A stretch of 64,000 nt of DNA from an uncultured Candidatus Saccharibacteria bacterium (GTDB lineage: Bacteria > Patescibacteriota > Minisyncoccia > Phycocordibacterales > Phycocordibacteraceae), in NCBI GenBank assembly GCA_964634305.1, contig CAZWLE010000004.1, forward strand, positions 35,059-99,058. The letters run 5' to 3'. Positions within the stretch are counted from its first letter, which is position 1; the number at the start of each line of letters is the position of its first letter. Below the pieces are notes generated by a model. That model did no database searches and was not told where the DNA came from. It saw only the letters and a program-made list of their open reading frames with translations. A program made the position numbers and the translations under genes. Below, piece after piece: positions 1 to 49,151 of the stretch.

Positions 1-1517
1 TCTTCGCGGGTGCGTTTATGCTCATCTCGCGCGCGGTTATTCTCGCGTTTCTCATGGTGACTTCGCCAATTGGGTTTGCGGGCATGGCAGTACCGCCGTT
101 GAAGAAACTTGCTGATGATTGGTGGAGTAAGCTGTTGCACCAGGCATTCTTCGCACCAATTTTCCTCTTACTTCTCTTGGTATCACTAAAGATTACCGAG
201 GGACTTTCACAAATAAGCTCAGGGGAAGGAGGCATTGGTGGTGCCATTGCCGCAGGAAACTCGATAAACACCGGGCCGCTCATTATGTTCTGTCTTATTA
301 TCGGCTTCTTTCTTGGTGCTCTTACTCTTGCAAACCGTTTTGGTATTTACTTCTCAGATCTTGCAACGACCACTGCAGGACGCCTGTCTTTTGGTGCCAT
401 GGGTATGCTTGGCCGTAACTCAGTAGGACGCGTTGCGTTAGGACTGCGCCAGGGTCTTAATTCTAAGGATGGTGGTAAAACTCCGTTTGGTCGATTCCGT
501 GGCAGCATGTATGACGTGCTCGCCAAAGGTAACTATGATTTCCGTAGCAATAAGCTAGCGCACGATATTGGGCACCAAGTAAAAGTTGATTTTGGTCATG
601 GACAGCATGGCGGATATGAGCACATAGCGCATGAAAGGGATGAGAAGCTTGAGAAATACGGTAAGGGCCGTGAACACAATGCTGAACAAAAGAGCTTACT
701 TGGCGCTGCTGCTAAAGAAACTAACAATGCAAAGGAGGCTGCAGAAGAGGCAAAGAAGAAATATGAAGCACATGCCGAGGGCGAGGATACTGCATCTGCT
801 ACACTTGAAGAACAACTCAAGACAGCAACCGCTGCTGCAGCTACGGCCCAGAAGACTAATCAGGATCGATTTAACGCTCAAGAACAGGTGCTCGCAAAAG
901 CAGACGCTGACCTTAAGGCAGCACAGGAGCAGAGAGCCGCTTCATCTTCTAACCTTGCTGCATATGGTGTAGCTAAGGCTGCAGAAGAGAAAGCAGAGAA
1001 AGACCGCAATGAAGCGGCAGCGGCTCTGGAGGTTATTAAGGAACAAAATGAGGCACAGGCTGAACGCGACAAGATAAATCTTGAAGCACAGCAAGAAGCA
1101 CTTCGTGTAAGCCGTGAGAACTTCACAACACTTGGAAAGACGCTTTCAAAAGCAGTTAAAGATAAAACGGAGGCGTTTGAACTACAAAAGGCTGCAGAAG
1201 TAAAATTGAAGGCGGATTTGAGTCCTATTAAAGCGTTTACTGAACAGCTTGCACGAGAACAGGCAAATCCAATCATCCGTATGCTTCCTGGTAGTGAGGG
1301 CGTGACGCATGCTATCCATAATCTTGATAAGCACGCGAATTCAACAGAGAACGAGCGTTTGATGAAGAAACTTGCTGACTCAATCGACAGAGCCGGAAAA
1401 GCTACTGCCGATGCAACAAGAAGTCTTGAGCGCGAAATTGATGAGAACGCTCGTCGAGCTGCTGGTGACAGTACGGACGATCAGCACGCGACGGGTGGTG
1501 GTGACGGTCATCACTGA
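1..1517 (+). CDS. Integral membrane protein, VirB6/TrbL-like candidate, 5' end truncated by the window edge. Several hydrophobic helices are followed by a ~350-aa Ala/Glu/Lys-rich coiled-coil tail.
   Basis: The reading frame is open from position 3 with no upstream stop. The N-terminal part is hydrophobic (LAFLMVTSPIGFAG, FFAPIFLLLLLVSL, LIMFCLIIGFFLGALTLA). A long heptad-like AEEAKKK/AAQEQ region follows. The gene sits in a cluster with PrgI-like and VirB4 genes. Confidence 0.3.
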   Translation, partial: FAGAFMLISRAVILAFLMVTSPIGFAGMAVPPLKKLADDWWSKLLHQAFFAPIFLLLLLVSLKITEGLSQISSGEGGIGGAIAAGNSINTGPLIMFCLIIGFFLGALTLANRFGIYFSDLATTTAGRLSFGAMGMLGRNSVGRVALGLRQGLNSKDGGKTPFGRFRGSMYDVLAKGNYDFRSNKLAHDIGHQVKVDFGHGQHGGYEHIAHERDEKLEKYGKGREHNAEQKSLLGAAAKETNNAKEAAEEAKKKYEAHAEGEDTASATLEEQLKTATAAAATAQKTNQDRFNAQEQVLAKADADLKAAQEQRAASSSNLAAYGVAKAAEEKAEKDRNEAAAALEVIKEQNEAQAERDKINLEAQQEALRVSRENFTTLGKTLSKAVKDKTEAFELQKAAEVKLKADLSPIKAFTEQLAREQANPIIRMLPGSEGVTHAIHNLDKHANSTENERLMKKLADSIDRAGKATADATRSLEREIDENARRAAGDSTDDQHATGGGDGHH

Positions 1518-1529
1518 TAGACTATCGTT

Positions 1530-2303
1530 ATGCCTCCGGAACCTAGTACCACTCTCGATGATGCTTCGTTCGAGAACGACGTAAAGGTATTACTCGATAA
1601 TCTCCCTGCACCAGTACGAGCCTTCGTGGTGGGGAAGGGGCCAGATAAAACGGTACTAAGCCTCACACGCAAGTATCAGCTACATACTGACCAAGCGGGC
1701 GAACTGCACAAAGCACTCCTCATGATGCTTCTTGGTGTATATTCACCAAGCCGCTTCGCAACTACGCTTGAAGACAAGGATTTTTCCGAGGAAACCGTAG
1801 AAGGTATCATCGCGGACCTAAACGAACAGGTCTTTGCACCTCTTCGCAAGGAAGAAAGAGAAGAGACTGCCCCAAACAGCTCCGCCGCGAAGAAAGAACC
1901 CCTTGCGCCCGTTCCGGCTCCTCTTAACCCAATACCTCAAGCTCCTACACCGACAGCTCCTGTGGTGCCAGTTCCTACCCCAAAACCAGTGCCGCCTCCA
2001 AGTCCAGCTGTATCAGCACCACTAGCACCCCCACCAACTCCATCACCGTCATATGAGCCAACCATGCGCACCATGGCGCATGACATTGAAGGGATGAAGG
2101 ACGGCCACGCCCCAGCACCCGTACCACACCAAATACCAGGACTCGCTCATCCTGCAGTAGCGCCTGCTGTCCCTATGCCTCCAACACCCGTACCTATTAC
2201 CGTACCCCCTGTAGCTCCATCTTCAGCGCACCCGGACCCAACTGAAGTGCGTACCACCTTACAGAAATACGGCATAGACCCTTACCGAGAATCCGTCGAC
2301 TAG
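1530..2303 (+). CDS. Hypothetical protein with a ~110-aa N-terminal domain and a long Pro/Ala/Val-rich low-complexity C-terminus
   Basis: The ORF is 257 aa. The C-terminal two thirds are PxxP-like repeats (PVPAPLNPIPQAPTPTAPVVPVPTPKPVPPPSP). It is co-directional and tightly spaced within the T4SS-like cluster. Confidence 0.4.
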   Translation: MPPEPSTTLDDASFENDVKVLLDNLPAPVRAFVVGKGPDKTVLSLTRKYQLHTDQAGELHKALLMMLLGVYSPSRFATTLEDKDFSEETVEGIIADLNEQVFAPLRKEEREETAPNSSAAKKEPLAPVPAPLNPIPQAPTPTAPVVPVPTPKPVPPPSPAVSAPLAPPPTPSPSYEPTMRTMAHDIEGMKDGHAPAPVPHQIPGLAHPAVAPAVPMPPTPVPITVPPVAPSSAHPDPTEVRTTLQKYGIDPYRESVD

Positions 2304-2320
2304 ATGGTATTCTTCCAGCA

Positions 2321-2761
2321 ATGAATGGTTCCGAGAGATTAGGGCGGATTCAAGAACGAGCGCATGAGCTCAAACATGATGCAAAGCATCACGCCCACGA
2401 AAAGCATGAGGCAGAAAAGGAAGCTGGTATTGAAGCGGTGCGGAGAGATTTTCCTCGCATTGTACAAGCGATAGAAAAGCGTATGGACCGACGATTCCTC
2501 GGGTCGCGTCAGCTTGGTGCGCACATAGCAAAACAGGGAGATGGTCAGTACACCTGGGTAATGCCAAATGACTTTAAATTGTCAGTTCGCCACCCGTACC
2601 ACACTCGGTTTACTTTTAACCCTCATGGTTTTACTGAAGCATACGTAAAAGAACTCCAAAAACAGCTCGGCGAGGAGTTCTTTGTGATGGCACAAGGCCA
2701 TGCACCCGATGGAAAATTGGTGGTTTCTTGGGCACCGAAACCTTCTTCACACGGACACTAG
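2321..2761 (+). CDS. Hypothetical protein with a His/Lys-rich N-terminus
   Basis: The ORF is 146 aa, carries no recognisable motif, and keeps the cluster orientation. Confidence 0.35.
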   Translation: MNGSERLGRIQERAHELKHDAKHHAHEKHEAEKEAGIEAVRRDFPRIVQAIEKRMDRRFLGSRQLGAHIAKQGDGQYTWVMPNDFKLSVRHPYHTRFTFNPHGFTEAYVKELQKQLGEEFFVMAQGHAPDGKLVVSWAPKPSSHGH

Positions 2762-2787
2762 TACGTGGCTGCTATACTTAACCTGAT

Positions 2788-3204
2788 ATGGATTATCAGG
2801 TCCCCCAGTTCATCGAAGTAGAGGACAAGATATTTGGTCCACTCACGATAATGCAGTTTGTGTATCTCGCTGGTGGCGCGGGACTCATTGCAATACTCGT
2901 TCTCTCGCTTCCACTTTTTCTTGGCATTCTTCTCTCTATTCCTGTTGCTGGACTCGCTGGTGCGCTCGCGTTCTATAAATTGAACGGCAAGCCATTTATC
3001 CAAGTGCTTGAATCAGGATTCAATTTCTTCACGGGGAAGCGTCAGTATCTCTGGAGGAAGGTAAAAGAACCAATTGCGCCAAGTACCGTCATGCAGGCGC
3101 CTCCGCCAGTGGCTCCGCTACAAAAGGAGGGTCTCTCTCGCCGCAAGCTTGAGGACCTTGCGTGGTCACTCGACGTGAAAGATACCGGGAAGAACCCGGA
3201 ATAA
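2788..3204 (+). CDS. PrgI-family (VirB3-like) small membrane protein of Gram-positive-type T4SS
   Basis: The N-terminus (YQVPQFIEVEDKIFGPLTIMQFVYLAGGAG) matches the PrgI pattern of a conserved EDKIFG-PLT-RQF segment followed by two TM helices. The gene lies immediately upstream of VirB4. Confidence 0.5.
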   Translation: MDYQVPQFIEVEDKIFGPLTIMQFVYLAGGAGLIAILVLSLPLFLGILLSIPVAGLAGALAFYKLNGKPFIQVLESGFNFFTGKRQYLWRKVKEPIAPSTVMQAPPPVAPLQKEGLSRRKLEDLAWSLDVKDTGKNPE

Positions 3205-3207
3205 ACC

Positions 3208-3843
3208 ATGCCTGAGACCAATCCGACACAATCGTTTGTGCCCGTGAAGGAGGTCCGTAACGGGGTCATCATCCTTAAAGAGGGGGGCTACCGCGGTATC
3301 CTCATGTGTTCTTCGATAAACTTCGCCCTCAAATCAAACGATGAACAGCAGGCGGTGATTGGTGGCTTCCAGAACTTCCTCAACACGCTCGATTTCTCGG
3401 TACAGATTGTGGTGCACTCGCGTCGCATGGACATTCGTCCGTACCTCGCGCTTCTTGAGGAACGCACTGAGAGTCAGGCAACGGAGCTTATGAAGATACA
3501 GGTGCGTGAGTACATCCAGTTCATCCGTAACTTCACCGACGGTGCCGACATCATGACGAAAACTTTCTATGTCGTCGTGCCGTATGACCCAGCTACCGGC
3601 CTAAAAGTAGCGAATGCGTTGCCACTTTTTGGTGGAAAGCCAGTGAAAGAAGCAGCGGTGGGTATGACTGATTCGTTTGACGAGCATCGTATCCAGCTGG
3701 AGCAACGCATGGCACTCGTCACGTCTACGCTTATGGGCACTGGGGTGAGGGCAGTAGCACTCGGAACGGAAGAAATCATTGAGCTTCTGTACCGTTCGTT
3801 CCATCTCGGTACGCTTGAGACGCCGATAAAACTCAATAACTAA
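3208..3843 (+). CDS. VirB4/TraC/ConE N-terminal domain encoded as a separate ORF
   Basis: The segment ILKEGGYRGILMCSSINFALKSNDEQQAVIGGFQNFLNTLDFSVQIVVHSRRMDI resembles the conserved N-domain of Gram-positive VirB4 homologues (the INF-L-S-EEQ pattern). Its stop TAA is 1 nt before the ATG of the VirB4 ATPase ORF. The two ORFs total 211+606 aa, a typical VirB4 length. Confidence 0.5.
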   Translation: MPETNPTQSFVPVKEVRNGVIILKEGGYRGILMCSSINFALKSNDEQQAVIGGFQNFLNTLDFSVQIVVHSRRMDIRPYLALLEERTESQATELMKIQVREYIQFIRNFTDGADIMTKTFYVVVPYDPATGLKVANALPLFGGKPVKEAAVGMTDSFDEHRIQLEQRMALVTSTLMGTGVRAVALGTEEIIELLYRSFHLGTLETPIKLNN

Positions 3844-3844
3844 T

Positions 3845-5665
3845 ATGGCGTTCCTCGATTTCCTCAACAAAAAGAAAGAAGATGCGGCACCAACGGTTGC
3901 ACCAGTGCTTCCACAAGACATTTACGCTGAAGGCGCACTTTCGCTAGTCGACACCATAGCGCCAGACGCACTCAAAGTTGATTCAAAAGATATCGCGCTT
4001 GGTGAGAAGTACGCACGCTCGTTCTATACGATTTCTTACCCACGCTATCTCTCTGATTCGTGGTTCACGCCGGTTGTAAACCTCACCCGCGTCCTTGATG
4101 CGTCTATTTTCATCCATCCGGTTGAGACGGAAGCGGCGCTTCGTTCGTTCCAGCGCAAAGTGGCGGAAGTAGAGAGCCAGATTACTGAAAGGGCAGAGAA
4201 GGGCCTCGTACGTGACCCGATGCTCGATACGGCGTACCGCGACCTCGAGGATTTGCGCGACAGCCTGCAGCAGGCACAGGAACGTCTCTTTGAAGTAGGG
4301 CTCTACCTTACGGTGTACGGCGACACCAAGGAAGAACTCGACAAGATTGAATCGGATGTACGCGGTATTCTCGACTCCCGCCTCATTTACACAAAGCCTG
4401 CGCTCTTCCAGCAAGAGCAGGGATTCCGCTCCACCTTGCCACTCGCCCTCGACGAGCTCTCGGTCAATCAAAAACTCAATTCTTCACCGCTCTCCTCTAT
4501 ATTCCCGTTTGTTTCCTTCGACCTCACCTCTAATAACGGCATCCTCTATGGCATCAACCGTCACAACGCGTCGTTGATTCTCTTTGATCGTTTCTCGCTC
4601 GAAAACTACAACTCGGTGGTCTTTGCAAAGTCCGGTTCAGGTAAGTCATACGCAGTGAAGCTCGAAATCCTGCGCTCGTTGATGTTCGATACTAATGTCA
4701 TCGTCATCGACCCAGAACGTGAGTACGAGGCTCTCGCAGAGGCAACCGGTGGCCGTCTCTTCAACATCTCGCTCTCTTCAGAGCATCACATCAACCCATT
4801 CGACCTTCCACCGGTTAAAGAGGATGAGAATCCGTCAGATATTCTGCGCTCAAACATCATTAACCTCGTGGGTCTCTTCCGCATCATGCTCGGTGGTCTT
4901 ACCCCCGAGGAGGACGCCATTGTCGACCGCGCCATCACCGAAACCTACGCACTCAAAGACATCACGGGAGACGCGGACTTCACCGGAGTCGAGGCGCCAT
5001 TGCTTTCCGATTTTGAGAACGTGCTCTCAGGTATGGAGGGGTCACAATCCTTGGTTCAGCGTCTAAGTAAATACACGAAGGGCACTTGGTCGGGCTTCCT
5101 CAACCAGCCAACGAACGTAGACATCAATAAACAGTTCATCGTCTTCTCGGTGCGCGATATGGAGGATGAGTTGAAGCCGGTTGCGATGTACATCGTTACG
5201 CACTTCATCTGGAACGCGGTGCGCCACGACCTCAGAAAGCGCCTTCTCATCATTGACGAGGCATGGTGGATGATGAAGAGCGAGGACACCGCCTCCTTCC
5301 TCTACAGCCTCGCAAAGCGTGGTCGTAAGTACTATCTCGGCGTCTCAACGATTACCCAAGACGTCGAAGACTTCCTCCGTTCACCGTACGGCAAGCCAAT
5401 TCTCACCAACTCCTCAATACAGCTGCTGCTGAAACAATCACCAACGACTGTCGACACGCTAAAAGAAATCTTTAACCTCACTGACGAGGAGAAGTTCCTC
5501 TTGCTTGAATCAGGAGTAGGGGAGGGCCTCTTCTTTGCAGGTCTCAAGCACGTTGCGATTAAGATTGTCGCGTCCTATACCGAAGACCAAATCATTACCT
5601 CAGACCCTTCCCAGCTACTTGCGATTAAGGACGCTAAGGCACGACTCTCGGGCGGAACACCCTAA
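3845..5665 (+). CDS. virB4: Type IV secretion system ATPase VirB4/TraC/ConE family, ATPase domain
   Basis: Walker A is VVFAKSGSGKSYAVK and Walker B is RLLIIDEAWWMM. The order and spacing of motifs are typical of CagE/TrbE/VirB4 ATPases. Confidence 0.8.
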   Translation: MAFLDFLNKKKEDAAPTVAPVLPQDIYAEGALSLVDTIAPDALKVDSKDIALGEKYARSFYTISYPRYLSDSWFTPVVNLTRVLDASIFIHPVETEAALRSFQRKVAEVESQITERAEKGLVRDPMLDTAYRDLEDLRDSLQQAQERLFEVGLYLTVYGDTKEELDKIESDVRGILDSRLIYTKPALFQQEQGFRSTLPLALDELSVNQKLNSSPLSSIFPFVSFDLTSNNGILYGINRHNASLILFDRFSLENYNSVVFAKSGSGKSYAVKLEILRSLMFDTNVIVIDPEREYEALAEATGGRLFNISLSSEHHINPFDLPPVKEDENPSDILRSNIINLVGLFRIMLGGLTPEEDAIVDRAITETYALKDITGDADFTGVEAPLLSDFENVLSGMEGSQSLVQRLSKYTKGTWSGFLNQPTNVDINKQFIVFSVRDMEDELKPVAMYIVTHFIWNAVRHDLRKRLLIIDEAWWMMKSEDTASFLYSLAKRGRKYYLGVSTITQDVEDFLRSPYGKPILTNSSIQLLLKQSPTTVDTLKEIFNLTDEEKFLLLESGVGEGLFFAGLKHVAIKIVASYTEDQIITSDPSQLLAIKDAKARLSGGTP

Positions 5666-5668
5666 ACC

Positions 5669-6157
5669 ATGGCAGAAAAAGGGAAGACAGGGCAGCGCAT
5701 CGACGGACTGATGGCGACGCTGCTTATTCTGGCAGCGCTTGGCGCTGATTTCTTGCAGACCCTAGCGCTTCTTGGAGGTCCCTTCCTAGGGAGCCTTATC
5801 TCGCTTATCGCGTTTACCTTCTTTAGCTGTTGGTTTTTCATGCTCGGAGTGAGCTATCTCGATCGAAACGGAGCGGTCAAGTTTGTCATATGGATGTGCT
5901 CATTCATCGTTGAGTTCATTCCTATCCTTAACACCATCCCAGCCATAACGATGGGCGTGGTATCCCTGGTCTTGATGACCCGATTTGCCGACGGAAAGGA
6001 CAGCGCGCTCTTTAAACTCGCTCGAAGACGTCGCGCAAAGATGGATAAGGAACAGTTACATCTAGCTGAACGTCGTGCACTCGATTACCAGGCGCGTGAC
6101 GCCATGGGCGCTCAGTACCGAAGAGTAGAATCTAAACAGAACAACGACGAAGAGTAG
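5669..6157 (+). CDS. Small polytopic membrane protein, T4SS-associated by context
   Basis: The ORF is 162 aa with 3-4 predicted TM helices and a charged C-terminal tail. It starts 4 nt after the VirB4 stop. Confidence 0.4.
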   Translation: MAEKGKTGQRIDGLMATLLILAALGADFLQTLALLGGPFLGSLISLIAFTFFSCWFFMLGVSYLDRNGAVKFVIWMCSFIVEFIPILNTIPAITMGVVSLVLMTRFADGKDSALFKLARRRRAKMDKEQLHLAERRALDYQARDAMGAQYRRVESKQNNDEE

Positions 6158-6182
6158 CGCAGAGGGACGGTATACTACACGC

Positions 6183-7145
6183 ATGATTCGCATGCTTCTC
6201 GCACTCCTTTTGGTGCTTGCGCCTGCCACCCTCCACGCACAGGTACTCCCGGGCGTAAGTCCTGTGGTCATTACCCTTTCACCACAGTACCCACGTCCGT
6301 ACGAGACGGTCACGGTAAAGCTCACAAGCACCGTTTTCAGCCTTCCTGCGAGCACGGTCACTATCTACGCCAACGGTGCGGTTATCGGAGAGAACACCTC
6401 TACTGCAACCTTCCAGGCAGGAGCAGCGGGAAGTCGAACCACTATACGCGCAGTTGTATCTAACAGTGACGGCACAAACGAAGCCTCAGTCTCGGTAGTA
6501 CCTACTGATATTGCACTCATCGTTGAGCCAACCGCTACCGCGCACGCCTTCTATGACGGAGGGGTCCTCCCCGCACCCGAAGGGCAGGTACGAGTCGTCG
6601 CGCTCGCAGACTTCCGCTCAGGAGGCACAAGTATTGCTCCTTCAAATCTCATCTACACGTGGAAGCTCGGTGATAAGGAGCTCGCTGCAGAATCCGGGGC
6701 AGGGAAGAATGTACTGACGGCGACTGGCCCTACTCGCTATCGCGACGCCACGGTAAGTGTGCGGGTCGCGACGCGTGACGGCTCTATCGTTGGCTCGGCG
6801 AGTGTCGTTGTGGCTCCAGTGAATCCGCTGGTGCGTATCTACCGCAATGACCCTCTTCTTGGTATCGATTTTGCTAACGCGCTCTCTGGTACCTTCACGC
6901 TTCCCGGTACCGAGGAAGCATTCCGTGCCGTTGGTTACCATTTTGGCACCAACCCAACATTGTCCTGGACCTTAAACGGTACCGACACCGGCACTGACCC
7001 CGACCTCACCCTCCGTACTACGGGTACAGAAGAGGGAACAGCCCTCCTTGGCGTATCTGCTGATGGAAACGGGATATTCTCACATGCTGAGTCCTCGCTT
7101 ACCGTACAATTTGGAAGAGCATCAAACGCCTTATTTGGCTTCTAA
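6183..7145 (+). CDS. Secreted Thr/Ser/Gly-rich beta-rich protein with a signal peptide
   Basis: The N-terminus MIRMLLALLLVLAPATLHAQ is a signal peptide. The 320-aa protein is low in charged residues and rich in T/S/G/V. Confidence 0.45.
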   Translation: MIRMLLALLLVLAPATLHAQVLPGVSPVVITLSPQYPRPYETVTVKLTSTVFSLPASTVTIYANGAVIGENTSTATFQAGAAGSRTTIRAVVSNSDGTNEASVSVVPTDIALIVEPTATAHAFYDGGVLPAPEGQVRVVALADFRSGGTSIAPSNLIYTWKLGDKELAAESGAGKNVLTATGPTRYRDATVSVRVATRDGSIVGSASVVVAPVNPLVRIYRNDPLLGIDFANALSGTFTLPGTEEAFRAVGYHFGTNPTLSWTLNGTDTGTDPDLTLRTTGTEEGTALLGVSADGNGIFSHAESSLTVQFGRASNALFGF

Positions 7146-7147
7146 CT

Positions 7148-8056
7148 ATGAAATATTTCATCCTCCCGTCGCTTGCGCTCGCTGCACTCCTCTTCGCCCC
7201 ACAAGCGTTTGCGGCTGATGGCTTCGTGCCACTAACCAGTATCCCTGGTGTCGACAGTGTGACCGGCGCTGATTCTCTTGCTGCTTTTTTAAATAGTCTC
7301 TATAAGCTCGCTATAGGCGCTGCAGCCGTTCTTGCCGTCTTCCAGATTATCCGCGGCGGCATCATGTACATGCTTGAAGGTAGTGTGCTCGAAAAGCGCG
7401 AAGCGAAGCACCACATATTCATGGCAGTGGTTGGTCTCGTACTCGTACTTTCTCCAGCCCTCGTGTTTGGCATCATCAATCCAAAGATTCTTGATCTAAA
7501 TATTGGCACTGACCAACTCACGCCAGGGAATAGCCAAGGCGCCCCGGGGCAAGACGAAGGGCAGAGTGGGGAAGACGAAGGAACCGACAACGGAGGTGCT
7601 GCAGAGGACACAACCGTACCTCAAACGCTTGAATCCTGTGCAGAGAACCAGGGACGCTGGATTGTCAGTGCGGAGTCACCTAACGGCCGATGCATCATCG
7701 TAACCGATACCTCTGATGAGGCACTTACCGATGAAGAACAGATAGACACCACTAATGGTGTGACGGGCACGCCCTATACCGGGTCCTACACCGTGCGCGC
7801 CACCAGTAAGTTCGTAACGTATAGAACAAGAAACGTGCCAGAGTGGGGCTGTAACCTCCTCAGTTCAGTTTATTTTGACAGTGATGCCACTACTGCTGCG
7901 GTGTGCCAGGCACGTGGTGCAGAAACCGGATGGACCGCGATTAATGGAGCCGTATGTATACCGGAAGGGCAGTCACGAACTATATCTCTTACCAACGCCT
8001 GCACCGCACCAGGCACGAATGAGGTGTCGCCGCAGCAAGCAAATCGCGGTGATTAA
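7148..8056 (+). CDS. Pilin-like protein: signal peptide plus two hydrophobic helices (VirB2/TrbC-like architecture), fused to a Cys-rich C-terminal domain
   Basis: A signal peptide (MKYFILPSLALAALLFAPQAFA) is followed by two hydrophobic segments (LAIGAAAVLAVFQII, IFMAVVGLVLVLSPALVFGI). A ~150-aa domain with 8 Cys follows. Confidence 0.35.
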   Translation: MKYFILPSLALAALLFAPQAFAADGFVPLTSIPGVDSVTGADSLAAFLNSLYKLAIGAAAVLAVFQIIRGGIMYMLEGSVLEKREAKHHIFMAVVGLVLVLSPALVFGIINPKILDLNIGTDQLTPGNSQGAPGQDEGQSGEDEGTDNGGAAEDTTVPQTLESCAENQGRWIVSAESPNGRCIIVTDTSDEALTDEEQIDTTNGVTGTPYTGSYTVRATSKFVTYRTRNVPEWGCNLLSSVYFDSDATTAAVCQARGAETGWTAINGAVCIPEGQSRTISLTNACTAPGTNEVSPQQANRGD

Positions 8057-8059
8057 TAT

Positions 8060-9253
8060 ATGAGACGCATACTTGTCATCGTAGGAGCGGTCATAGCGAT
8101 ACTCATCGTCGCAACACTCGTCTATCTACTCTTCTTTCGTGGACCGAGCGGTGGCGTGTCTGCAACGCCTGGTAACCAATTCCCTGATGGAGAGGGTATA
8201 GGTATTACCGCGCCTGACGTAGGTGTCCCTCAAGACGCAGGTGACGAAGTCGCCACGAATCTTATTCGTATTACGGAAGGACCTGTTGCTTTTGGCGTTG
8301 TAGCAAGCAGTACCGTCCGTTTCCAAACGCAGGGTGAAGGCACCACAACCGAGACCGTACGTATTCCAGAGACCGAAATACGGTATATCGAACGGGCAAG
8401 TGGGAATATCTATGCCTTCCGCTTGAACGAGCGTACCCTTACGCGCCTCACCAACCGTACACTACCTGGTATACAAGAAGCGGCATGGTTTCCCGATGCG
8501 TCAGTCGCGTTCGTACGCTTTATGGACGAAGCCGATGCAACGGAAACGTATGCACTCCCTGCTGACGGGGGAGAGGGGTACGCCCTTGAACGAAACATTT
8601 CCGACCTTGCGGTGACGGACAGTTCCGTCGTTACGCTCGTCTCATCCACCAATGGCTCAGTCGCCACCGCCGCAAACGCAAGTGGTGCCAATGCACGTAC
8701 GCTCTTCTCCTCACTTCTTTCATCGCTTCGCCTGCACGCAGGAAGCGCAACGGTCTTTGCGTCAACCAAAGCAGCGTCAGCTGCTGACGGCTATCTCTTT
8801 AAGACAGGAGCTTCGTTTGAACGCATCCTCGGTCCATTGAAAGGACTCACTGCGCTTCCAAGTCCGTCTGGCACGAAGGTTATCTATAGCTATGTATCAG
8901 GAAATACGACCCGCTCTGCGCTCTACGATGTCGCAACCCACACCGCGACCACACTCCCAGTAGCTGCACTCCCTGACAAGTGTGTGTGGACTGACGACGA
9001 ACAGAGTATTTACTGCGGTATTCCGCGCACCGTAGCTGCTGGCTGGCCAGACACCTGGTACCAGGGGGCGGCGCATTTCACCGACCGTATCTGGCGCATT
9101 GATGTCGATGCACGCATTGCGTCCCTTGTGGTTGACCCAAAGCTCGTTGCTGACGCAGAAATAGACGCGGTAGCGCTTGCAATAGATTCGCGCGCTGATG
9201 CGCTCGTGTTTACGAACAAAACTGACGGGTCCCTTTGGTTGTTTGACCTCTAG
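8060..9253 (+). CDS. Membrane-anchored extracytoplasmic protein, possibly a beta-propeller-like fold
   Basis: An N-terminal TM (ILVIVGAVIAILIVATLVYLLFF) is followed by a large hydrophilic domain. This is the last gene of the co-directional cluster. Confidence 0.4.
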   Translation: MRRILVIVGAVIAILIVATLVYLLFFRGPSGGVSATPGNQFPDGEGIGITAPDVGVPQDAGDEVATNLIRITEGPVAFGVVASSTVRFQTQGEGTTTETVRIPETEIRYIERASGNIYAFRLNERTLTRLTNRTLPGIQEAAWFPDASVAFVRFMDEADATETYALPADGGEGYALERNISDLAVTDSSVVTLVSSTNGSVATAANASGANARTLFSSLLSSLRLHAGSATVFASTKAASAADGYLFKTGASFERILGPLKGLTALPSPSGTKVIYSYVSGNTTRSALYDVATHTATTLPVAALPDKCVWTDDEQSIYCGIPRTVAAGWPDTWYQGAAHFTDRIWRIDVDARIASLVVDPKLVADAEIDAVALAIDSRADALVFTNKTDGSLWLFDL

Positions 9254-9996
9254 GTTTGAGGCGCTGGAGTTCCAGACACAACCGGATACACCTTACGGAC
9301 AACAAACTCCTGTACGACCATAAACACGCTTGAGGCGATGAAGTAGAGCGCGAGCACTGCTGAGGTGTACGCGATAGCACCCACAAGAAGCGGGAAGATG
9401 TAACGCGCCTGCAGAGCAATCATGCGGGCAAACTCATCCTGCATAGATGGTGTTGCTTCCGTGCTTTTTGGTGGTACTGGGATGACATACCAGCTCTGCC
9501 AGAGCTGTGCGAGCGCCGCGACAAGCGCGAGAATGATACTAGGAGCGGCGAGCGAGAAGATACCAAGGAAGAGAGGGGAGAGCACCGCAGGCGCCTGTAC
9601 GAATGGGTAGAGGAGCGATGGGTCAGCTGAGGCAAGGGCCGTAGCGTGAAGTGCGACGTAATAGAGACCGAAGAGAATCGGAATCTGAATGAAGAGCATC
9701 AAAATAGAGGCAAAGGGCTTCACGCCATGCGCCTTATAGAGTGCGAGCATCTCGCGTGCCTGTTTCTCCTTATCATCCTTATACCGCTCCTTGAGCGCCT
9801 TTAGCTCAGGCTCAAGCACCTTCATCGCGCGCTGGGTCTTCACCGCCGAGAGGGAGAGGGGAAGGAGCACCAGCTTTACGACGACGGTCGCGGCAATAAC
9901 CGCGATACCAAGGTCACCTCCAGGAATGATATCCACGAGGAATACCAAGAGGTTGTAGATAGGGAGATAAATGAAGTGGTGAAAGAAAGAAGCCAT
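9250..9996 (-). CDS. yidC: Membrane protein insertase YidC, short form
   Basis: The segment KTQRAMKVLEPELKALKERYKDDKEKQAREMLALYKAHGVKPFAS...IQIPILFGLY is typical of YidC. The gene sits in the canonical rpmH-rnpA-yidC arrangement. Confidence 0.75.
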   Translation of the reverse strand: MASFFHHFIYLPIYNLLVFLVDIIPGGDLGIAVIAATVVVKLVLLPLSLSAVKTQRAMKVLEPELKALKERYKDDKEKQAREMLALYKAHGVKPFASILMLFIQIPILFGLYYVALHATALASADPSLLYPFVQAPAVLSPLFLGIFSLAAPSIILALVAALAQLWQSWYVIPVPPKSTEATPSMQDEFARMIALQARYIFPLLVGAIAYTSAVLALYFIASSVFMVVQEFVVRKVYPVVSGTPAPQT

Positions 9997-10001
9997 AAGT
10001 C

Positions 10002-10316
10002 CTAATGATGGGGGCGATTGAGTAGAGATTCAAGCTCGGCCTTGAGAACACCGTAGGGAAGCCCGAGACTTCCCGCACGTGCGTAGGCAATAATGGAGCG
10101 ACCAGGGGTGAGATAGGGGCGTAGGACAGCGAGCATCCGGCGCTTCAAGAGGTGTCGGTCGACCGAGCGACGGGCTACCTTCTTAGACACTACGGCAGCT
10201 GCCCCTCCTTCACGGGCAGGGACAGCAACAATAGAGAAATGGGCTGAGGATGCCCTCATACCGCTCCGGGTGTCCGGAAACCGAGCCCGGGAAAGGCGGC
10301 TCCGGCGGGGCAGCAT
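10002..10316 (-). CDS. rnpA: Ribonuclease P protein component
   Basis: It is a basic small protein (RLSRARF...VVSKKVARRSVDRHLLKRRM) located between rpmH and yidC. The true start may instead be the internal Met at about 10259. Confidence 0.6.
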   Translation of the reverse strand: MLPRRSRLSRARFPDTRSGMRASSAHFSIVAVPAREGGAAAVVSKKVARRSVDRHLLKRRMLAVLRPYLTPGRSIIAYARAGSLGLPYGVLKAELESLLNRPHH

Positions 10317-10323
10317 GCCTAAT

Positions 10324-10476
10324 TTACGCCTTACGGCTCTTGACGGTCAGCGCGGCGCGTCCTTTTCTGCGGCGACGGGTAAGAACGTTCTTCCCGGTAG
10401 GGGTTTTGCTGCGAGAAAGGAAGCCGTGGGCGCGAGCGCGCTTTCGTTTCTTCGGCTGGTACGTGCGTTTTGGCAT
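10324..10476 (-). CDS. rpmH: 50S ribosomal protein L34, missing from the ORF track because it is under 60 aa
   Basis: The reverse-strand translation is [50 protein letters not shown]-stop, a near-canonical L34 sequence. Confidence 0.85.
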
Positions 10477-10585
10477 GAAGTCGAGTGATAAATGCTATCC
10501 ACAGGATACTAACATGTTCTCCACGCCGAGCAAGAAAATAGGCCAGTTTTTAGTTATCCACAGTGGCGCGTATACTACTCCCACG
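10477..10585. promoter_or_regulatory. dnaA upstream region carrying DnaA boxes (oriC/dnaA promoter candidate)
   Basis: A perfect TTATCCACA lies at 10554-10562. CTATCCACA (one mismatch) lies at 10495-10503. A weaker TTCTCCACG lies near 10518. All sit between the divergent rpmH and dnaA. Confidence 0.6.
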
Positions 10586-11929
10586 ATGAACAAACAAGAT
10601 CCTCACGAACTTTGGGAACACATACTTTCGCAGGTAGAACTCTCCATATCACCTGCCAATTTCAACACCTGGTTTCGTGAGAGTCATATTGTAAAGATAG
10701 AAGAGGGGATTGTGTACGTAGGTGTACCGAGCCAATTCTTCCGTGATTGGTACCAGAAGAAGTTCCACGCGCTTCTCCTTAAGATTCTCCGCTCGGTCTC
10801 CTACGAGTTCCGTAATATTGAGTACCTCATCGTTAAAGATGCACGTAAGCCAAAGGTAGAGAAGCGTGAGCGCCAGAATCAGGAGTTGCCGCTCGATGAG
10901 TTCTACATAAACAAGAGCGACAACCTTAATCCTCGCTACACGTTCGATACGTTTGTCGTTGGTTCCTTCAACGAACTCGCGTACACCGCTGCTATGGCTG
11001 CTATTAAGCGCCCTGGCATCACATACAACCCACTCTTTGTGTACGGCGACACCGGACGCGGTAAGACGCACCTCATTCAGGCGGTGGGTAATCAATTCAA
11101 GAAACTCTACCCAACGCGTAAGGTCTACTATCTAACGTCAGAGAAGTTTTCCGTCGACTACACCGACTCCATAGGGCAGGGGACGGCGAACCGTTTCAAG
11201 GAGAAGTACCGTCAGTACGATCTCATCATCATGGATGACATCCAGTTCCTCGCCAAGAAGGAGAAGACGCAGGAGGAACTCTTCCACCTCTTCAACCACC
11301 TGCACGACAACAATAAGCAGATTATCTTCTCCTCAGACCGTCCTCCTCAGGCTATTCCTGATATTGCTGACCGTGTACGTGGACGTCTTCTTAGCGGCAT
11401 GACGGTGGATATTTCTGAGCCTGATACCGAGTCTCGTATCGCTATCGTGAAGAAAAAGGCAGCTCAGCACGACGTCATCCTTGCTGATGATGTGGTGGAG
11501 TACGTCGCCACCTCCGTTTCTGGCTCTATTCGAGAGCTTGAAGGCATTATTAACTCACTTGTGTGTCATGCGCAGGTAAAAGGAGTATCTCCAGACCTTG
11601 CAGAGGTACGTCAGTCACTCCGTTCTTTCTCCCGCCCTACTAAATCAGTCTCGGTTAAGCATGTGGTCTCTAAGGTGGCTGAGTTCTACGGTATCGACGA
11701 GGAGAGTATCTACGAGAAGACACGCAGAAGGGAGGTGGTACGCCCACGTCAGGTCATCATGTTCCTTCTTCGTGAGGACTTCTCCGTCTCATATCCGACG
11801 ATAGGATCAAAGCTTGGTGGTCGTGACCACACCACCGTTATTCACTCGTGCGAAAAGGTGCGTCGTGAGATGACGGATGATCTTGAACTTGCAAAAGAGA
11901 TTCAAGATATCCGCGGACTGTTGGTATAG
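10586..11929 (+). CDS. dnaA: Chromosomal replication initiator DnaA
   Basis: The N-terminal domain (LWEHILSQVELSISPANFNTWF) is followed by the AAA+ Walker A (GDTGRGKTHL) and Walker B (DLIIMDDIQF), and a C-terminal DNA-binding domain (HTTVIHSCEKV). Start was taken at ATG 10586 rather than the over-extended track start at 10250. Confidence 0.9.
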   Translation: MNKQDPHELWEHILSQVELSISPANFNTWFRESHIVKIEEGIVYVGVPSQFFRDWYQKKFHALLLKILRSVSYEFRNIEYLIVKDARKPKVEKRERQNQELPLDEFYINKSDNLNPRYTFDTFVVGSFNELAYTAAMAAIKRPGITYNPLFVYGDTGRGKTHLIQAVGNQFKKLYPTRKVYYLTSEKFSVDYTDSIGQGTANRFKEKYRQYDLIIMDDIQFLAKKEKTQEELFHLFNHLHDNNKQIIFSSDRPPQAIPDIADRVRGRLLSGMTVDISEPDTESRIAIVKKKAAQHDVILADDVVEYVATSVSGSIRELEGIINSLVCHAQVKGVSPDLAEVRQSLRSFSRPTKSVSVKHVVSKVAEFYGIDEESIYEKTRRREVVRPRQVIMFLLREDFSVSYPTIGSKLGGRDHTTVIHSCEKVRREMTDDLELAKEIQDIRGLLV

Positions 11930-12132
11930 GTGTGTAAAACCTATGGAAAACTCCCAGGAAACTATGAGGATAATTACTGAGATGATTGGGGATTCTGTTA
12001 GGTTGGGAAAAGGGGTGTTAGTAAGTTCTGTTATTAACAATAGTTTTCAACAGGGTTGTGTAGGTGGTAGGGAGAAAATAACTAAGTATGTAGGCGGTAT
12101 TACTACGTTTTCCACCTATCAACACAACTAAT
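11930..12132. promoter_or_regulatory. AT-rich dnaA-dnaN intergenic region, candidate DNA-unwinding element or second oriC half
   Basis: This ~200 nt stretch is markedly AT-rich compared with its flanks. It contains degenerate box-like TTTTCCACC and TGTGTAAAA. Confidence 0.35.
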
Positions 12133-12141
12133 ATGGGTGGT

Positions 12142-13242
12142 ATGAATATTTCTCTAGAAAAAAAAGAATTAATACAGGCAGTGGGAATTGTTTCTCGTTT
12201 CTCTGAACGAAAGACCTCAACACTTCCTGCACTTGCAGGTATCTCGATACTGGCTGAGAAAGATACCCTTACGTTCTATGCCACTAATCTTGAAACCGGT
12301 ATCAGTCTTAAGGTGCAAGGCTCAGTCCGCACTCCTGGATCTATTGTGCTTCCGGCGAATATTTTCCGAGAGATCACCAACTCCTTCTCAGGTACAGGGA
12401 CAGTTTCTTTAGAGCTTGATGGTGATGTAGTGAAAATAGCAGCAGGAACCGCAAAGACCACTATGAAAACCCTTCCTCAAGAGGATTTTCCAACCCTTCC
12501 TTCTCTTGAGACGTCTAAAATCTCCTTCACTCTCCCTGGTACGCTTCTTAAGAGCCTTATTTCAACGGTAGCGTCGTGCGCATCTCCTTCGACGGTACGT
12601 CCTGAACTTGCCAGTATCTTTATTTCCGCTGAGGGCGGCACGGTAAAGGCGGTAGCTACTGACTCATTCCGTCTTGCAGAGAAGAAAGTATCCGTGAACG
12701 CATCAGTGAAGCCGTTCTCCATGCTTATTCCTGCTAAAAACGCCCTAGATATCGCACAGACGCTTCCTGACGAGGATATTGAGGTAAATGCCGACGAACA
12801 TCAGTGCTCCTTCTCTTGGAAGGGAGGTATGGCTACGACACGTCTTGTGTCTGCACAGTACCCAGACTATGGGCAGATAATTCCAAAAACATTCGCCGCA
12901 GAAGCGACGATTCTCCGAAAAGATTTTGAGACGGCTCTTCGTCGGGCCTCTGTCTTCTCTGACGCGTTCCAAAAGGTTCGTGTGGGACTTGATGCAGGAA
13001 AGAAGCAAGTCACGCTCTCATCGCGAAATTCTGACGTTGGAGAGTCCTTAGAGAGTATTCCTGCATCAATATCAGGAGAAGTAATAGAGCTGCCGTTTAA
13101 TCATCGTTATCTTGGTGCACCACTCTCTCTTATTGGCGCCGAGAGTATCTCGCTCTCTGCTGCAGGTATCGGTCGTCCATTAGTTATGCGTGGTCAGGGT
13201 GATACGTCCTTCTTGTATCTGGTAATGCCGATGAATCAATAG
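12142..13242 (+). CDS. dnaN: DNA polymerase III beta sliding clamp
   Basis: The ~366 aa length and three-domain beta-clamp pattern fit DnaN. The gene lies directly after dnaA. The track start at 12133 is an alternative. Confidence 0.85.
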   Translation: MNISLEKKELIQAVGIVSRFSERKTSTLPALAGISILAEKDTLTFYATNLETGISLKVQGSVRTPGSIVLPANIFREITNSFSGTGTVSLELDGDVVKIAAGTAKTTMKTLPQEDFPTLPSLETSKISFTLPGTLLKSLISTVASCASPSTVRPELASIFISAEGGTVKAVATDSFRLAEKKVSVNASVKPFSMLIPAKNALDIAQTLPDEDIEVNADEHQCSFSWKGGMATTRLVSAQYPDYGQIIPKTFAAEATILRKDFETALRRASVFSDAFQKVRVGLDAGKKQVTLSSRNSDVGESLESIPASISGEVIELPFNHRYLGAPLSLIGAESISLSAAGIGRPLVMRGQGDTSFLYLVMPMNQ

Positions 13243-13244
13243 TT

Positions 13245-14282
13245 TTGATGATTAACTCAAAAACATTATTTATAGTTGGTGCTGGAGCAAGTCAGGAGGT
13301 GAAATTTCCAGCAGGGGATACTTTTAAAAAAGAAATAACCAGACGGTTAGATATCCAATATGAACATGGTTTCGAGAGAACCTCTGGTGATGAAAGGATA
13401 GACGAAGCCTTTAGAAGATTAGTAAGAGAGAAGAATCCCCAAAACCAAGACATAAACCCGTATCTAAAAGCATCTCGGAAGATAAGAGACGCTCTGCCTC
13501 AAGCGTTATCTATAGATAATGTTTTGGATGCTCATGCGGAAGACGATGAGGTCCAGCTAGCAGGAAAGCTTGGAGTTGCCCAGACAATTCTAGAGGCAGA
13601 GAGAAAAAGTTCCCTGTTCTGTGGATTTGGAGAGAAGATAAACCAGTCGAATCTTTTGGATACTTGGTATGTTCAGCTTTCTAAGCTACTTACAGAGAAT
13701 GTAAGAAAAGGAGATATTGGAGAAATCTTCGATAACGTTTCTTTCATAACTTTTAATTACGACAGATGTATCGAGCAATATCTTCCCCATGCTCTTGCGA
13801 ATTATTATTCAATCTCCTTAGAGGAGGCACGGGCGATAGTCTCCACTTTGGTGATTAAACATCCTTATGGGCAGGTCGGTAGATTAAGCGCAGAAAATCC
13901 AAGAGACATGGTCCTTTTTGGAGAAACTGAGAGGGTTGATTTAATCGCTATTTCCTCTCAGATAAAAACTTTTACACAACAAGAAGCAAACCCAGCTAAC
14001 CTGGAAGATATAAAATCATTAGTAAGAGAAGCTGAAACGATAGTGTTTTTAGGGTTTGGTTTCCATAGGATGAATATGGAGCTACTCGACCCTCAGACGT
14101 CCACAAAAGTTAAGAGAGTATTCGGTACCGCTAGAGGCATTTCAAACATGGATTGTGAAGTGGTCAAAGACGACATCATGTCCATCCTTCACCCAGAGAC
14201 TACAATTCCTAAAATCGTGATTGATAACACCTTGTCCTGTTATGGGCTTTTCGAAACACACTGGAGAAGTCTCTCTCGTTAA
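13245..14282 (+). CDS. SIR2-like (SIR2_2 / ThsA-like) domain protein with a presumed NAD+-binding or NADase fold, standalone, 345 aa
   Basis: The motifs are FIVGAGASQE (GAGxS), ITFNYDRCIEQ (the TTNYD motif), IKHPYGQ (the xHG region) and IVFLGFGFHRMN (the FVGFSF-D motif). Order and spacing match ThsA N-domain-type SIR2. The gene is visibly AT-rich relative to dnaN and the PBP gene. Confidence 0.55.
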   Translation: MMINSKTLFIVGAGASQEVKFPAGDTFKKEITRRLDIQYEHGFERTSGDERIDEAFRRLVREKNPQNQDINPYLKASRKIRDALPQALSIDNVLDAHAEDDEVQLAGKLGVAQTILEAERKSSLFCGFGEKINQSNLLDTWYVQLSKLLTENVRKGDIGEIFDNVSFITFNYDRCIEQYLPHALANYYSISLEEARAIVSTLVIKHPYGQVGRLSAENPRDMVLFGETERVDLIAISSQIKTFTQQEANPANLEDIKSLVREAETIVFLGFGFHRMNMELLDPQTSTKVKRVFGTARGISNMDCEVVKDDIMSILHPETTIPKIVIDNTLSCYGLFETHWRSLSR

Positions 14283-33468: not shown

Positions 33469-34009
33469 ACTTACTAATCTTTTGCCTCACGCACGACAGC
33501 TCACGGAGAAGCGTGAGTATCTTGTACGTCTTGCGACGCTTTCCTGCATAGTGGCGACGTTTGTCGTAGTGGTGCACGGGGCACTATTGGTACCGTCGTA
33601 TCTGTATCTCTCTGAACAGGTTGGTCTCGAGCGTGCACGTATTGCTGAACTCGACGCGGCGCTCGCGCTAAGTGGGGAAGGGGAACTCTCAACGCGTGTC
33701 AGCACCTTGAAAGCGGATGCGGCGCGGTTGAGTGCGGTGAGCACCTCACCTGCAGCAACGACGGTGCTGCGTGCAGTCCTCGCACTTCCCTCAAATGGCA
33801 TTACGCTTTCTGCATTCACGTTCCATGCGCCACCTGAAGGACGTATCTCGGTAACTGGAACGGCTGCGACGCGTGAGTCACTTCGTCAGTACGCTGCAGC
33901 ACTCGAAACGCTTACATTCGCAGAGAGTACCGACTTACCACTCTCGGCTTATGCACGGGAGAGTGATATTCCATTTACGATTACGCTCACCGGTCCTCTT
34001 ACGCCATGA
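33458..34009 (+). CDS. pilN: PilN-like bitopic membrane protein
   Basis: It has a short cytoplasmic N-terminus, one TM (LSCIVATFVVVVHGALLVPSYLYL), and a periplasmic coiled-coil plus domain. It overlaps the pilM end. Confidence 0.5.
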   Translation: MSTELTNLLPHARQLTEKREYLVRLATLSCIVATFVVVVHGALLVPSYLYLSEQVGLERARIAELDAALALSGEGELSTRVSTLKADAARLSAVSTSPAATTVLRAVLALPSNGITLSAFTFHAPPEGRISVTGTAATRESLRQYAAALETLTFAESTDLPLSAYARESDIPFTITLTGPLTP

Positions 34010-45574: not shown

Positions 45575-45608
45575 GAAAAAGCCCCGCACTGCGGGGCTTT
45601 TTCTTTAT
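45575..45608. terminator. Rho-independent terminator directly after rplK
   Basis: The structure is AAAAAGCCCCGC-ACT-GCGGGGCTTTTTCTTT. Confidence 0.65.
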
Positions 45609-47539: not shown

Positions 47540-47550
47540 AATGAGCTCGA

Positions 47551-48384: not shown

Positions 48385-48406
48385 GGCGCCTAGTATACTT
48401 GCCGCC

Positions 48407-49090: not shown

Positions 49091-49151
49091 TTTCTCCATG
49101 GTATAGCGCGCCTCCCATTGAAAAGATTTATTTACGTAACGAAGGAGGCCT

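Follow-up and report, generated by a model that had tools for sequence, protein, structure and literature searches.

The window analysed here, a 64-kb stretch of contig CAZWLE010000004.1 (positions 35,059 to 99,058, forward strand), opens with a cluster of ten plus-strand open reading frames (ORFs g1 to g10; window positions 1-9253). With a probability of about 85 %, the cluster is assigned to the Paceibacteria version of the Patescibacteria type IV secretion system (T4SS), which is chromosomal and vertically inherited and derives from the conjugation apparatus of monoderm bacteria (class MPF_FATA), its DNA-processing partners having been lost. The components were identified on the strength of curated profiles and of relatives with solved structures. 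The system has already been described (Quinonero-Coronel et al. 2025, PMC12102498; Wang et al. 2023, PMC10633639), and the find is thus correct and not new. Added here are a secreted protein with three predicted immunoglobulin (Ig)-like domains (g8), a predicted membrane-anchored beta-propeller (g10) and a hypervariable orphan domain at the C terminus of the pilin (g9).

Organisation of the cluster

The ORFs are as follows (aa, amino acids; nt, nucleotides).

g1, 1-1517, plus strand: the 3′ two thirds or so of a probable extended VirB6/TrbL-like polytopic membrane protein, 5′ end beyond the window
g2, 1530-2303, plus strand: conserved Pro-rich accessory protein, no transmembrane segment
g3, 2321-2761, plus strand: orphan ORF of 146 aa, rich in His, Glu and Lys, in a variable operon slot
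g4, 2788-3204, plus strand: small PrgI/VirB3-like membrane protein (PF12666)
g5, 3208-3843, plus strand: TrsD-like protein of 211 aa, a stand-alone homologue of the VirB4 N-terminal domain
g6, 3845-5665, plus strand: VirB4 ATPase of the MPF_FATA/CD1110 type, lacking an N-terminal domain of its own
g7, 5669-6157, plus strand: small polytopic membrane protein bearing a charged tail at its C terminus
g8, 6183-7145, plus strand: secreted protein, predicted to comprise three tandem Ig/FnIII-like beta-sandwich domains
g9, 7148-8056, plus strand: VirB2-type T4SS pilin (signal peptide and two transmembrane helices, residues 1-127) fused to an orphan C-terminal domain of 175 aa
g10, 8060-9253, plus strand: N-terminal transmembrane anchor (residues 2-26), disordered linker and predicted extracellular beta-propeller

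The g1 frame is cut at the window edge; it is read from nt 3, with no stop codon before nt 18. The successive intergenic gaps from g1 to g10 measure 12, 17, 26, 3, 1, 3, 25, 2 and 3 nt, and the last 4 nt of g10 overlap the 3′ end of yidC (9250-9996, minus strand), a convergent gene. The original prediction, made by a model from the letters of the window, had thus described correctly a block of ten co-directional, tightly packed genes that ends convergently on yidC; its distance of 600 nt from the block to rpmH needs correction to 1,071 nt (rpmH, 10324-10476).

ATPase module

The strongest assignments were obtained for the three genes in the middle of the cluster. The g6 protein scored 386.9 bits (cut-off 325) with the NCBIfam model conju_CD1110 (NF045971; VirB4-like conjugal transfer ATPase, CD1110 family), matched PF19044 (E=3e-26), AAA_10 and DUF87 as well, and found relatives among solved VirB4 structures, namely 4AG5 (E=4e-46) and TrwK (E=4e-11). 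Walker A (AKSGSGKS, residues 261-268, nt 4625-4648) and Walker B (LLIIDE, residues 467-472, nt 5243-5260) are both present. Matches of the preceding g5 protein were to the NCBIfam models VirB4_plasma (E=2.2e-8, model positions 102-233), conju_CD1110 (E=1e-5, model positions 2-119) and TrsD (E=2.4e-4), and its orthologue in L001, a related locus on a 742-kb contig, carries PF26593 (TraC-like); phmmer searches of the PDB with g5 gave no relatives. As g6 covers positions 184-733 of the CD1110 model and g5 positions 2-119, the VirB4 is truly split. An origin of the split by frameshift or pseudogene formation was considered and rejected: the listed VirB4 homologues are 586-615 aa long, and the 211-aa partner is separate in every relative. 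The g4 protein, which has a single strong hydrophobic stretch, matched PF12666 (PrgI) at E=4e-8 and 34.1 bits (cut-off 27).

Homologues of the g6 protein number at least 8000. Among the 120 matches listed they are 84-100 % identical to it, with the lengths given above, and every source name given is a member of the Patescibacteria group or an unclassified metagenome-assembled genome. In 80 loci of GTDB species the VirB4 identity to the window is 72-90 %, and the best relatives on 72,556 plasmids are CD1110-family VirB4 proteins of Firmicutes and Actinobacteria with 33-36 % identity. Judged by its similarity to these three sets of sequences, the window VirB4 falls within the Patescibacteria clade. 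Matches to the archaeal Ced-type ATPases were far below the NCBIfam cut-offs (CedB 38.9 bits, cut-off 700; CedD 15.5 bits, cut-off 600).

Conservation across related Paceibacteria

The cluster was compared with 81 related Paceibacteria loci from different species (numbered L001-L081). In nearly all loci long enough to show it, the order PrgI-TrsD-VirB4-(g7)-g8-pilin-g10-yidC-rnpA-rpmH-dnaA-dnaN is kept. A g4 orthologue lies directly upstream of TrsD-VirB4 in 76 of the 81 loci, and orthologues of g5 and of g8 were each found in 79. The g10 orthologue (66 of 81) mostly stands directly before yidC; in some loci the best pilin match follows g10. The median identities to the window were 75 % for VirB4, 68 % for L34, 56 % for TrsD, 55 % for DnaA, 49 % for PrgI, 43 % for YidC, 39 % for DnaN, 32 % for g8 and 30 % for g10, and in 53 of 56 loci VirB4 showed higher conservation than DnaA. 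Conservation of VirB4 above that of DnaA points to strong purifying selection on the core function and, together with the fixed gene order, marks the cluster, as judged from these comparisons, as a vertically inherited core locus under strong constraint and not an integrative and conjugative element (ICE). The comparison in related genomes for which the original prediction had called thus yields an almost invariant Paceibacteria core of six to seven genes (PrgI-TrsD-VirB4-(g7)-g8-pilin-g10) beside yidC and dnaA, with its VirB4 under stronger constraint than DnaA.

Search for mobility genes

No relaxase, coupling protein (VirD4/TcpA) or integrase was detected among the ten cluster proteins and 40 other ORFs of the window, which make up nearly all of the non-nested ORFs of 150 aa or more, and the absence of these genes noted in the original prediction stands to that extent; the other ORFs are housekeeping, type IV pilus or unknown genes. 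Since the window starts within g1, the upstream region was read in relatives: 208 ORFs from 44 related loci, located at most about 9 kb upstream from the cluster, were grouped into families, and none of the recurrent families was a relaxase, type IV coupling protein (T4CP) or integrase. The recurrent families are rsmA, uvrD and two unknowns, and in a second sub-lineage tpiA, pgk, recJ, comEC and an M50 peptidase. Signs of a mobile element were likewise absent, in that no integrase was found, the G+C content is native and synteny is fixed across species; att sites were not searched for explicitly.

These results bear on the possibility that the cluster is part of an ordinary ICE or of an integrated plasmid, with the genes for relaxase, T4CP and integrase situated a short way beyond the window edge. 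In its favour, the family to which the VirB4 belongs, CD1110, takes its name from conjugative elements, and the upstream flank was read in syntenic relatives, not in the source genome. Such genes just upstream had been named in the original prediction as what would make this an ordinary ICE, and no recurrent gene in the flanks of the 44 related loci is one of them. In L001 and in L002 (90 % VirB4 identity) the upstream flank consists of uvrD, (ubiA), rsmA, two unknown proteins and VirB6. The position beside yidC-rnpA-rpmH-dnaA is fixed in dozens of species, the composition is native, and VirB4 divergence tracks that of the housekeeping genes and is slower than theirs. On these grounds an ICE is effectively refuted and was rejected.

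Upstream half of the cluster

The visible part of g1 encodes the last three transmembrane segments, then an Ala/Glu/Lys-rich, coiled-coil-like tail of about 300 aa with a His-rich end; full-length orthologues have 700-850 aa. The window fragment itself gave no TrbL match in the profile libraries. The copy in L001 matched TrbL (PF04610) over profile positions 27-213 of 215 at E=4.4e-5 and 23.8 bits, below the cut-off of 25.9, and TrbL was matched at E<0.01 by eight of 40 orthologues (best 1.9e-7), TrbL_4 by one. When a profile of 40 VirB6-like orthologues was run against the PDB sequences, only low-complexity and coiled-coil noise was returned, with no VirB6 or TrwI. The g1 protein is therefore probably VirB6-like on these profile matches, which fall short of proof.

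Of the 257 aa of the g2 protein 50 are Pro; the protein has a helical domain at its N terminus and the conserved motifs RTMAHD.E.MKDGH and KYGIDPY. It is 30 % identical over its full length to the product of L002 6767-7651. Homologues were found in 27 of the 81 loci, in every case placed between the VirB6-like gene and PrgI; neither Pfam nor NCBIfam gave a match. For g3 no homologue was found in the 81 loci and no family in Pfam or NCBIfam. Its slot is empty in L001 and is filled in L002 by a 405-aa DnaJ-domain protein, which was compared with g3 and is unrelated to it.

In L001 and L002 the order upstream of PrgI is uvrD, (ubiA), rsmA/ksgA, the two unknown proteins upA (about 335 aa) and upB (about 480 aa), the full-length VirB6-like gene and g2. 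One Paceibacteria sub-lineage (L012-L030 and L061; VirB4 79-82 % identical to that of the window) has tpiA, pgk, recJ, comEC and an M50 peptidase gene directly before PrgI, in place of upA, upB, the VirB6-like gene and g2. The cluster is thus bipartite, the upA-upB-VirB6-g2 half not being adjacent to PrgI in this sub-lineage. The core half there adjoins competence and DNA-processing genes.

Pilin and its hypervariable C-terminal domain

The g9 protein matched PF18895 (T4SS_pilin) with 33.4 bits (cut-off 26.6) and, weakly, TrbC/VirB2 (E=5e-4); a phmmer search of the PDB with the pilin core returned no relatives. The pilin domain at the N terminus was conserved in 61 loci, whereas the C-terminal domain is not: across the loci 1609 of 1891 N-terminal pairs could be aligned, against 14 of 1326 C-terminal pairs (1 %; 52 loci). 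The length of the C-terminal extension ranges from about 10 to >400 aa among genomes, and for the last 143 aa of g9 no homologue other than the protein itself was found among 1.84e9 representative proteins. Comparison with L082, a close relative, gives 88 % identity for the N-terminal 127 aa and no alignment for the C-terminal domain. The same boundary is seen in the DNA. With blastn, positions 5155-7527 are 77.6 % and positions 8150-10500 are 82.5 % identical to L082, with no alignment between them:

7528-8149: hypervariable segment comprising the pilin C-terminal domain and the first 30 or so codons of g10 (counterpart in L082, 2376-2913)

In these alignments the pilin C-terminal domain looks like a product of cassette replacement or of extreme diversifying selection. 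Both termini of VirB2 pilins face outward, and because of this topology a strain-specific C-terminal domain would face the outside. It may be a host-recognition surface. As the fast-evolving and likely host-facing part of the system, it offers a concrete target for structural and genetic work when a co-culture of Paceibacteria becomes workable.

Envelope partners

The slot between VirB4 and g8 holds an ORF of roughly 100-620 aa (mostly 110-280 aa), nearly always with two to four transmembrane-like segments, in about 58 of 79 loci. The occupant in the window, g7, is 69 % identical to that of L082 and was detected by BLAST in only 14 loci; its position is conserved and its sequence, on these comparisons, diverges fast. 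The N terminus of g8 resembles a signal peptide. No Pfam family was above cut-off for g8, and an AlphaFold2 model from a 76-sequence alignment (mean predicted local distance difference test, pLDDT, 92.6; predicted template modelling score, pTM, 0.80) gave Foldseek matches in the PDB to Hoc, titin FnIII tandems and the SiiE adhesin at E about 1e-7. The g10 model (62 sequences; mean pLDDT 90.4, pTM 0.82) was matched to WD40, TolB and oligogalacturonate-lyase propellers (E about 1e-9, template modelling score about 0.5). With best matches spread over these propellers at that score, the g10 fold is generic; its homologues are all annotated as hypothetical, without a Pfam domain. The fold searches of g8 and g10 returned generic Ig tandems and beta-propellers and no known T4SS subunit fold. 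Both proteins are conserved partners of the core throughout the Paceibacteria, confidently predicted from the models to be extracellular beta-structures; with g7 they make up a set of conserved envelope proteins specific to the lineage.

Taken by component, most of what had been predicted from the letters stands: the PrgI-family protein, including the profile search suggested for it; the VirB4 ATPase with Walker A and B and its split; the Pro-rich protein (g2); the VirB2-like pilin; and the secreted or membrane-anchored proteins (g7 polytopic, g8 with a signal peptide, g10 with an N-terminal anchor). Two descriptions hold in part. The VirB6/TrbL-like protein with a coiled-coil tail is borne out by its orthologues and by the tail, and not by the window fragment, which lacks a TrbL match of its own; the Cys-rich pilin fusion is indeed a fusion to an orphan domain, with the richness in Cys amounting to six residues, all within the C-terminal domain.

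A hypervariable pilin domain, an Ig-like g8 and a propeller in g10 resemble the parts of adhesins, and the cluster could accordingly be an organelle for adhesion only, that is, a filament of the VirB2 type whose tip or side carries a variable domain and through which no substrate passes. The window also encodes type IV pilus (T4P) genes (pilB, pilM), however, and a part of T4P in adhesion has already been indicated for Saccharimonadia (PMC10633639). The extreme conservation of VirB4 and the retention of a probable VirB6 channel subunit suggest moreover that translocation has been kept. Adhesion as the sole function is thus regarded as distinctly unlikely, and a secretion system that still translocates is preferred.

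Relation to known systems

In a survey of 3,035 Patescibacteria genomes, Quinonero-Coronel et al. (2025, Microb Genom, PMC12102498) found a monophyletic Patescibacteria VirB4 clade nested in MPF_FATA, with TrsD as the most abundant associated component and with PrgI/VirB3, VirB6 and VirB2-like pilins near virB4. Relaxases were almost absent; T4CP homologues were mostly distant, VirD4 homologues being present in most genomes and usually far from virB4. The Paceibacteria systems of that survey lie near dnaA, dnaN, rnpA, rpmH and ksgA. The window shares an MPF_FATA VirB4 with adjacent TrsD, PrgI/VirB3, a probable VirB6, a VirB2-like pilin, the lack of a relaxase or nearby T4CP, and the proximity to the origin, and differs in nothing essential. 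The novelty implied by the original prediction is therefore not upheld, as the split VirB4 (TrsD and VirB4), PrgI, VirB6, the VirB2-like pilin, the missing relaxase and the closeness to dnaA, rnpA, rpmH and ksgA are all in that paper. Its main text does not include the three-Ig g8, the propeller g10, a single pilin with a hypervariable C-terminal domain in place of pilin arrays, the conservation of VirB4 above DnaA or the separation of the cluster into two halves in one sub-lineage.

In Southlakia epibionticum ML1 (Saccharimonadia) the T4SS genes SEML1_0006-0019 and the pilins are essential for epibiotic growth, and the system, which has no recognisable relaxase or coupling protein, "may instead export proteins" (Wang et al. 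2023, Cell, PMC10633639). Both systems are chromosomal and origin-proximal, combine Gram-positive-like subunits with VirB2-like pilins, show no recognisable relaxase or coupling protein in the locus and are proposed to be non-conjugative. In ML1 six divergent pilins form an array, and peptidase/lysozyme genes lie downstream of virB4; the system here, known from its genes, has a single pilin whose C-terminal domain is variable, and no hydrolase was detected by profile among its proteins. The view of the original prediction, a native, origin-proximal and non-conjugative module of a reduced-genome episymbiont, agrees with the published one (PMC12102498, PMC10633639).

With the conjugative MPF_FATA systems of monoderms (C. 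difficile CTn2/CD1110, pCF10 PrgH-PrgL, pGO1 Trs) the cluster shares a VirB4 above the CD1110 cut-off, PrgI, TrsD and the lack of an outer-membrane core. It differs in the low VirB4 identity (33-36 %), in its location, which is not on a mobile element, and in that no relaxase, T4CP, VirB1-like hydrolase, VirB8-like protein or PrgB-type adhesin was found; a VirB2-type pilin, which Gram-positive systems lack, is present. Ptl of B. pertussis, VirB of Brucella, ComB of H. pylori and archaeal Ced are likewise repurposed from conjugation and have loci free of relaxase and T4CP, but they are diderm MPF_T-type or archaeal systems with other subunit sets, and the Ced-type matches obtained here were far below cut-off.

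The T4SS of Patescibacteria is at present counted among the most intriguing members of its superfamily that await explanation: it is essential, relaxase-free and pilin-bearing in a monoderm, and probably has a central place in the episymbiotic way of life of a very large bacterial radiation. The window adds no new kind of system, and the pilin cassette is the only lead that may be worth following up.

Several points weigh against the assignment or the role given to it. The VirB6 assignment leans on profile matches that are below threshold or confined to a minority of orthologues, and the search of PDB sequences was empty. At the level of profiles, the locus yielded neither a VirB8-like nor a VirB1-like component: neither the cluster proteins nor upA and upB of the relatives matched a profile for a VirB1-like hydrolase or a VirB8-like protein. 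A coupling protein may be encoded elsewhere in the genome, the scan having covered the 64-kb window. A globular domain of 175 aa on each subunit may be sterically hard to pack in a VirB2-type helical filament, and to our knowledge a pilus made of a VirB2-like pilin has not been demonstrated in any Patescibacterium. Finally, essentiality of the T4SS is known in Saccharimonadia only, the Paceibacteria system being known from sequence.

Possible mode of action

The probability given at the outset applies to the identity of the system. The mechanism set out here is tentative, with the odds as a whole somewhat against it. VirB4/TrsD would dock on PrgI and VirB6 at the cytoplasmic membrane, and ATP hydrolysis would pull pilin from the membrane and polymerise it into a surface tube, the exterior of which would be decorated by the strain-specific C-terminal domain as a host-recognition surface. 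The g8 and g10 proteins may act as adhesins or as a scaffold spanning the cell wall. Exchange with the host, dependent on contact, would be the task of the machine, either export of effectors or import of host macromolecules, and not conjugation; the sequence does not decide the direction of transport or the cargo.

Export was suggested for Saccharimonadia by Wang et al. (2023): proteins would be translocated into or onto the host to subvert it, with the pilus-like parts as no more than a conduit. The lack of a relaxase or T4CP in the locus and the statement on S. epibionticum quoted above are in line with such an effector translocator, as is the existence of effector systems that lack a T4CP (Ptl, Brucella VirB; PMC12102498, PMC12857230). 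On the other hand, no candidate effector gene with a recognisable toxin or enzyme domain lies in or beside the cluster, and the conserved accessory proteins all look structural. Effector export is a sub-case of the exchange proposed here, inseparable from import by sequence alone, and taken by itself it is rather unlikely.

In the opposite direction, the tube could be an import conduit, similar to the DNA importers ComB or Ced, by which the metabolically reduced epibiont would take up host RNA, nucleotides or DNA, though for nutrition. A 2025 review (PMC12857230) raises the "uptake of various molecules" as a speculation and discusses both a possible T4SS pilus and a role as conduit for uptake or exchange. 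Tubular structures, possibly T4SS pili, have been reported at the parasite-host interface of a cultivated member, together with uptake of host RNA (bioRxiv 10.64898/2026.06.21.733656). The presence of recJ and comEC directly upstream of PrgI in one sub-lineage is in favour of import, and conservation of VirB4 above DnaA would fit a central nutritional role. Against it stand the CedB score of 38.9 bits (cut-off 700) and the lack of any nuclease or nucleic-acid-binding component in the cluster. Moreover, deletion of comEC in S. epibionticum abolished competence and left the cells viable (PMC12857230), so that essentiality of the T4SS is not due to ComEC-linked DNA uptake; in Saccharimonadia it is independent of ComEC (PMC12857230, summarising Wang et al. 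2023), which counts against the DNA uptake mentioned in the original prediction. Import as the main function is considered unlikely, and contact-dependent exchange in either direction remains the preferred formulation.

A bolder proposal, and a quite unlikely one, combines import with the pilin data. The strain-specific, disulfide-bonded C-terminal domain would be an exchanged cassette on the T4SS pilus that sets the host range, and the pilus would draw in host macromolecules such as RNA. If true, a host-recognition module displayed on a filament would be joined to an import machine derived from conjugation, which is a combination not met in the literature searched.

Chromosomal setting and composition

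The cluster is followed by genes around the presumed replication origin, which serve as context and are not part of the machine:

yidC, 9250-9996, minus strand
rnpA, 10002-10316, minus strand
rpmH, 10324-10476, minus strand
DnaA boxes, 10495-10503 and 10554-10562, in the gap between rpmH and dnaA
dnaA, ~10595-11929, plus strand
dnaN, 12133-13242, plus strand

A search of the window for DnaA boxes gave eight matches, three of them around dnaA, with no window-wide enrichment. At the yidC-dnaA junction the sign of the GC skew switches, from -0.041 on the left side to +0.040 on the right side within the window; GC3 skew of plus-strand genes is -0.124 to the left of the junction and +0.007 to the right, and the same sign change was seen in about 38 of 49 related loci. 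If oriC lies in the gap between rpmH and dnaA, these weak skews suggest that the T4SS operon is transcribed head-on to the leftward replication fork. Such an orientation of a long and highly conserved operon, which would then apply to most relatives too, is unusual for an essential and supposedly highly expressed locus.

The G+C content of the cluster (0.49-0.545) is close to that of most of the window (about 0.51-0.57), and the description of it as native in the original prediction is retained. Scanning for consensus sequences gave fewer promoter-like sites than shuffled controls did; terminator-like sites reached about double the shuffled mean but were spread through the interior of genes on both strands. 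Nothing interpretable was obtained from either.

Other features of the window

Directly after dnaN, an ORF of 345 aa (13245-14282) has a weak SIR2_2 match (E=2.7e-4, below cut-off); a 114-aa gene is found at this position in L001. It lies in the bin 12001-14000, the only one of low G+C in the window (0.439, compared with about 0.51-0.57). The ORF may be an inserted defence-type gene.

T4P genes lie at 19493-21133 (minus strand), 32386-33468 and 33458-34521 (both plus strand); they include a PilB-type T2SSE ATPase and pilM, after which come two small unknown ORFs, possibly pilN and pilO. T4P and T4SS are thus both encoded within 35 kb of the origin. An ORF of 613 aa (35054-36895, plus strand) has no Pfam family, and one of 623 aa (56185-58056, plus strand) with DUF11/NPCBM-associated repeats is likely to encode a surface protein. 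A compact thymidylate/folate cluster at 45605-50411 consists of genes for DHFR, a dCTP deaminase-like protein and ThyA (minus strand) and for a thymidylate kinase-like protein and SHMT (plus strand); the thymidylate kinase-like protein carries an N-terminal extension of about 100 aa.

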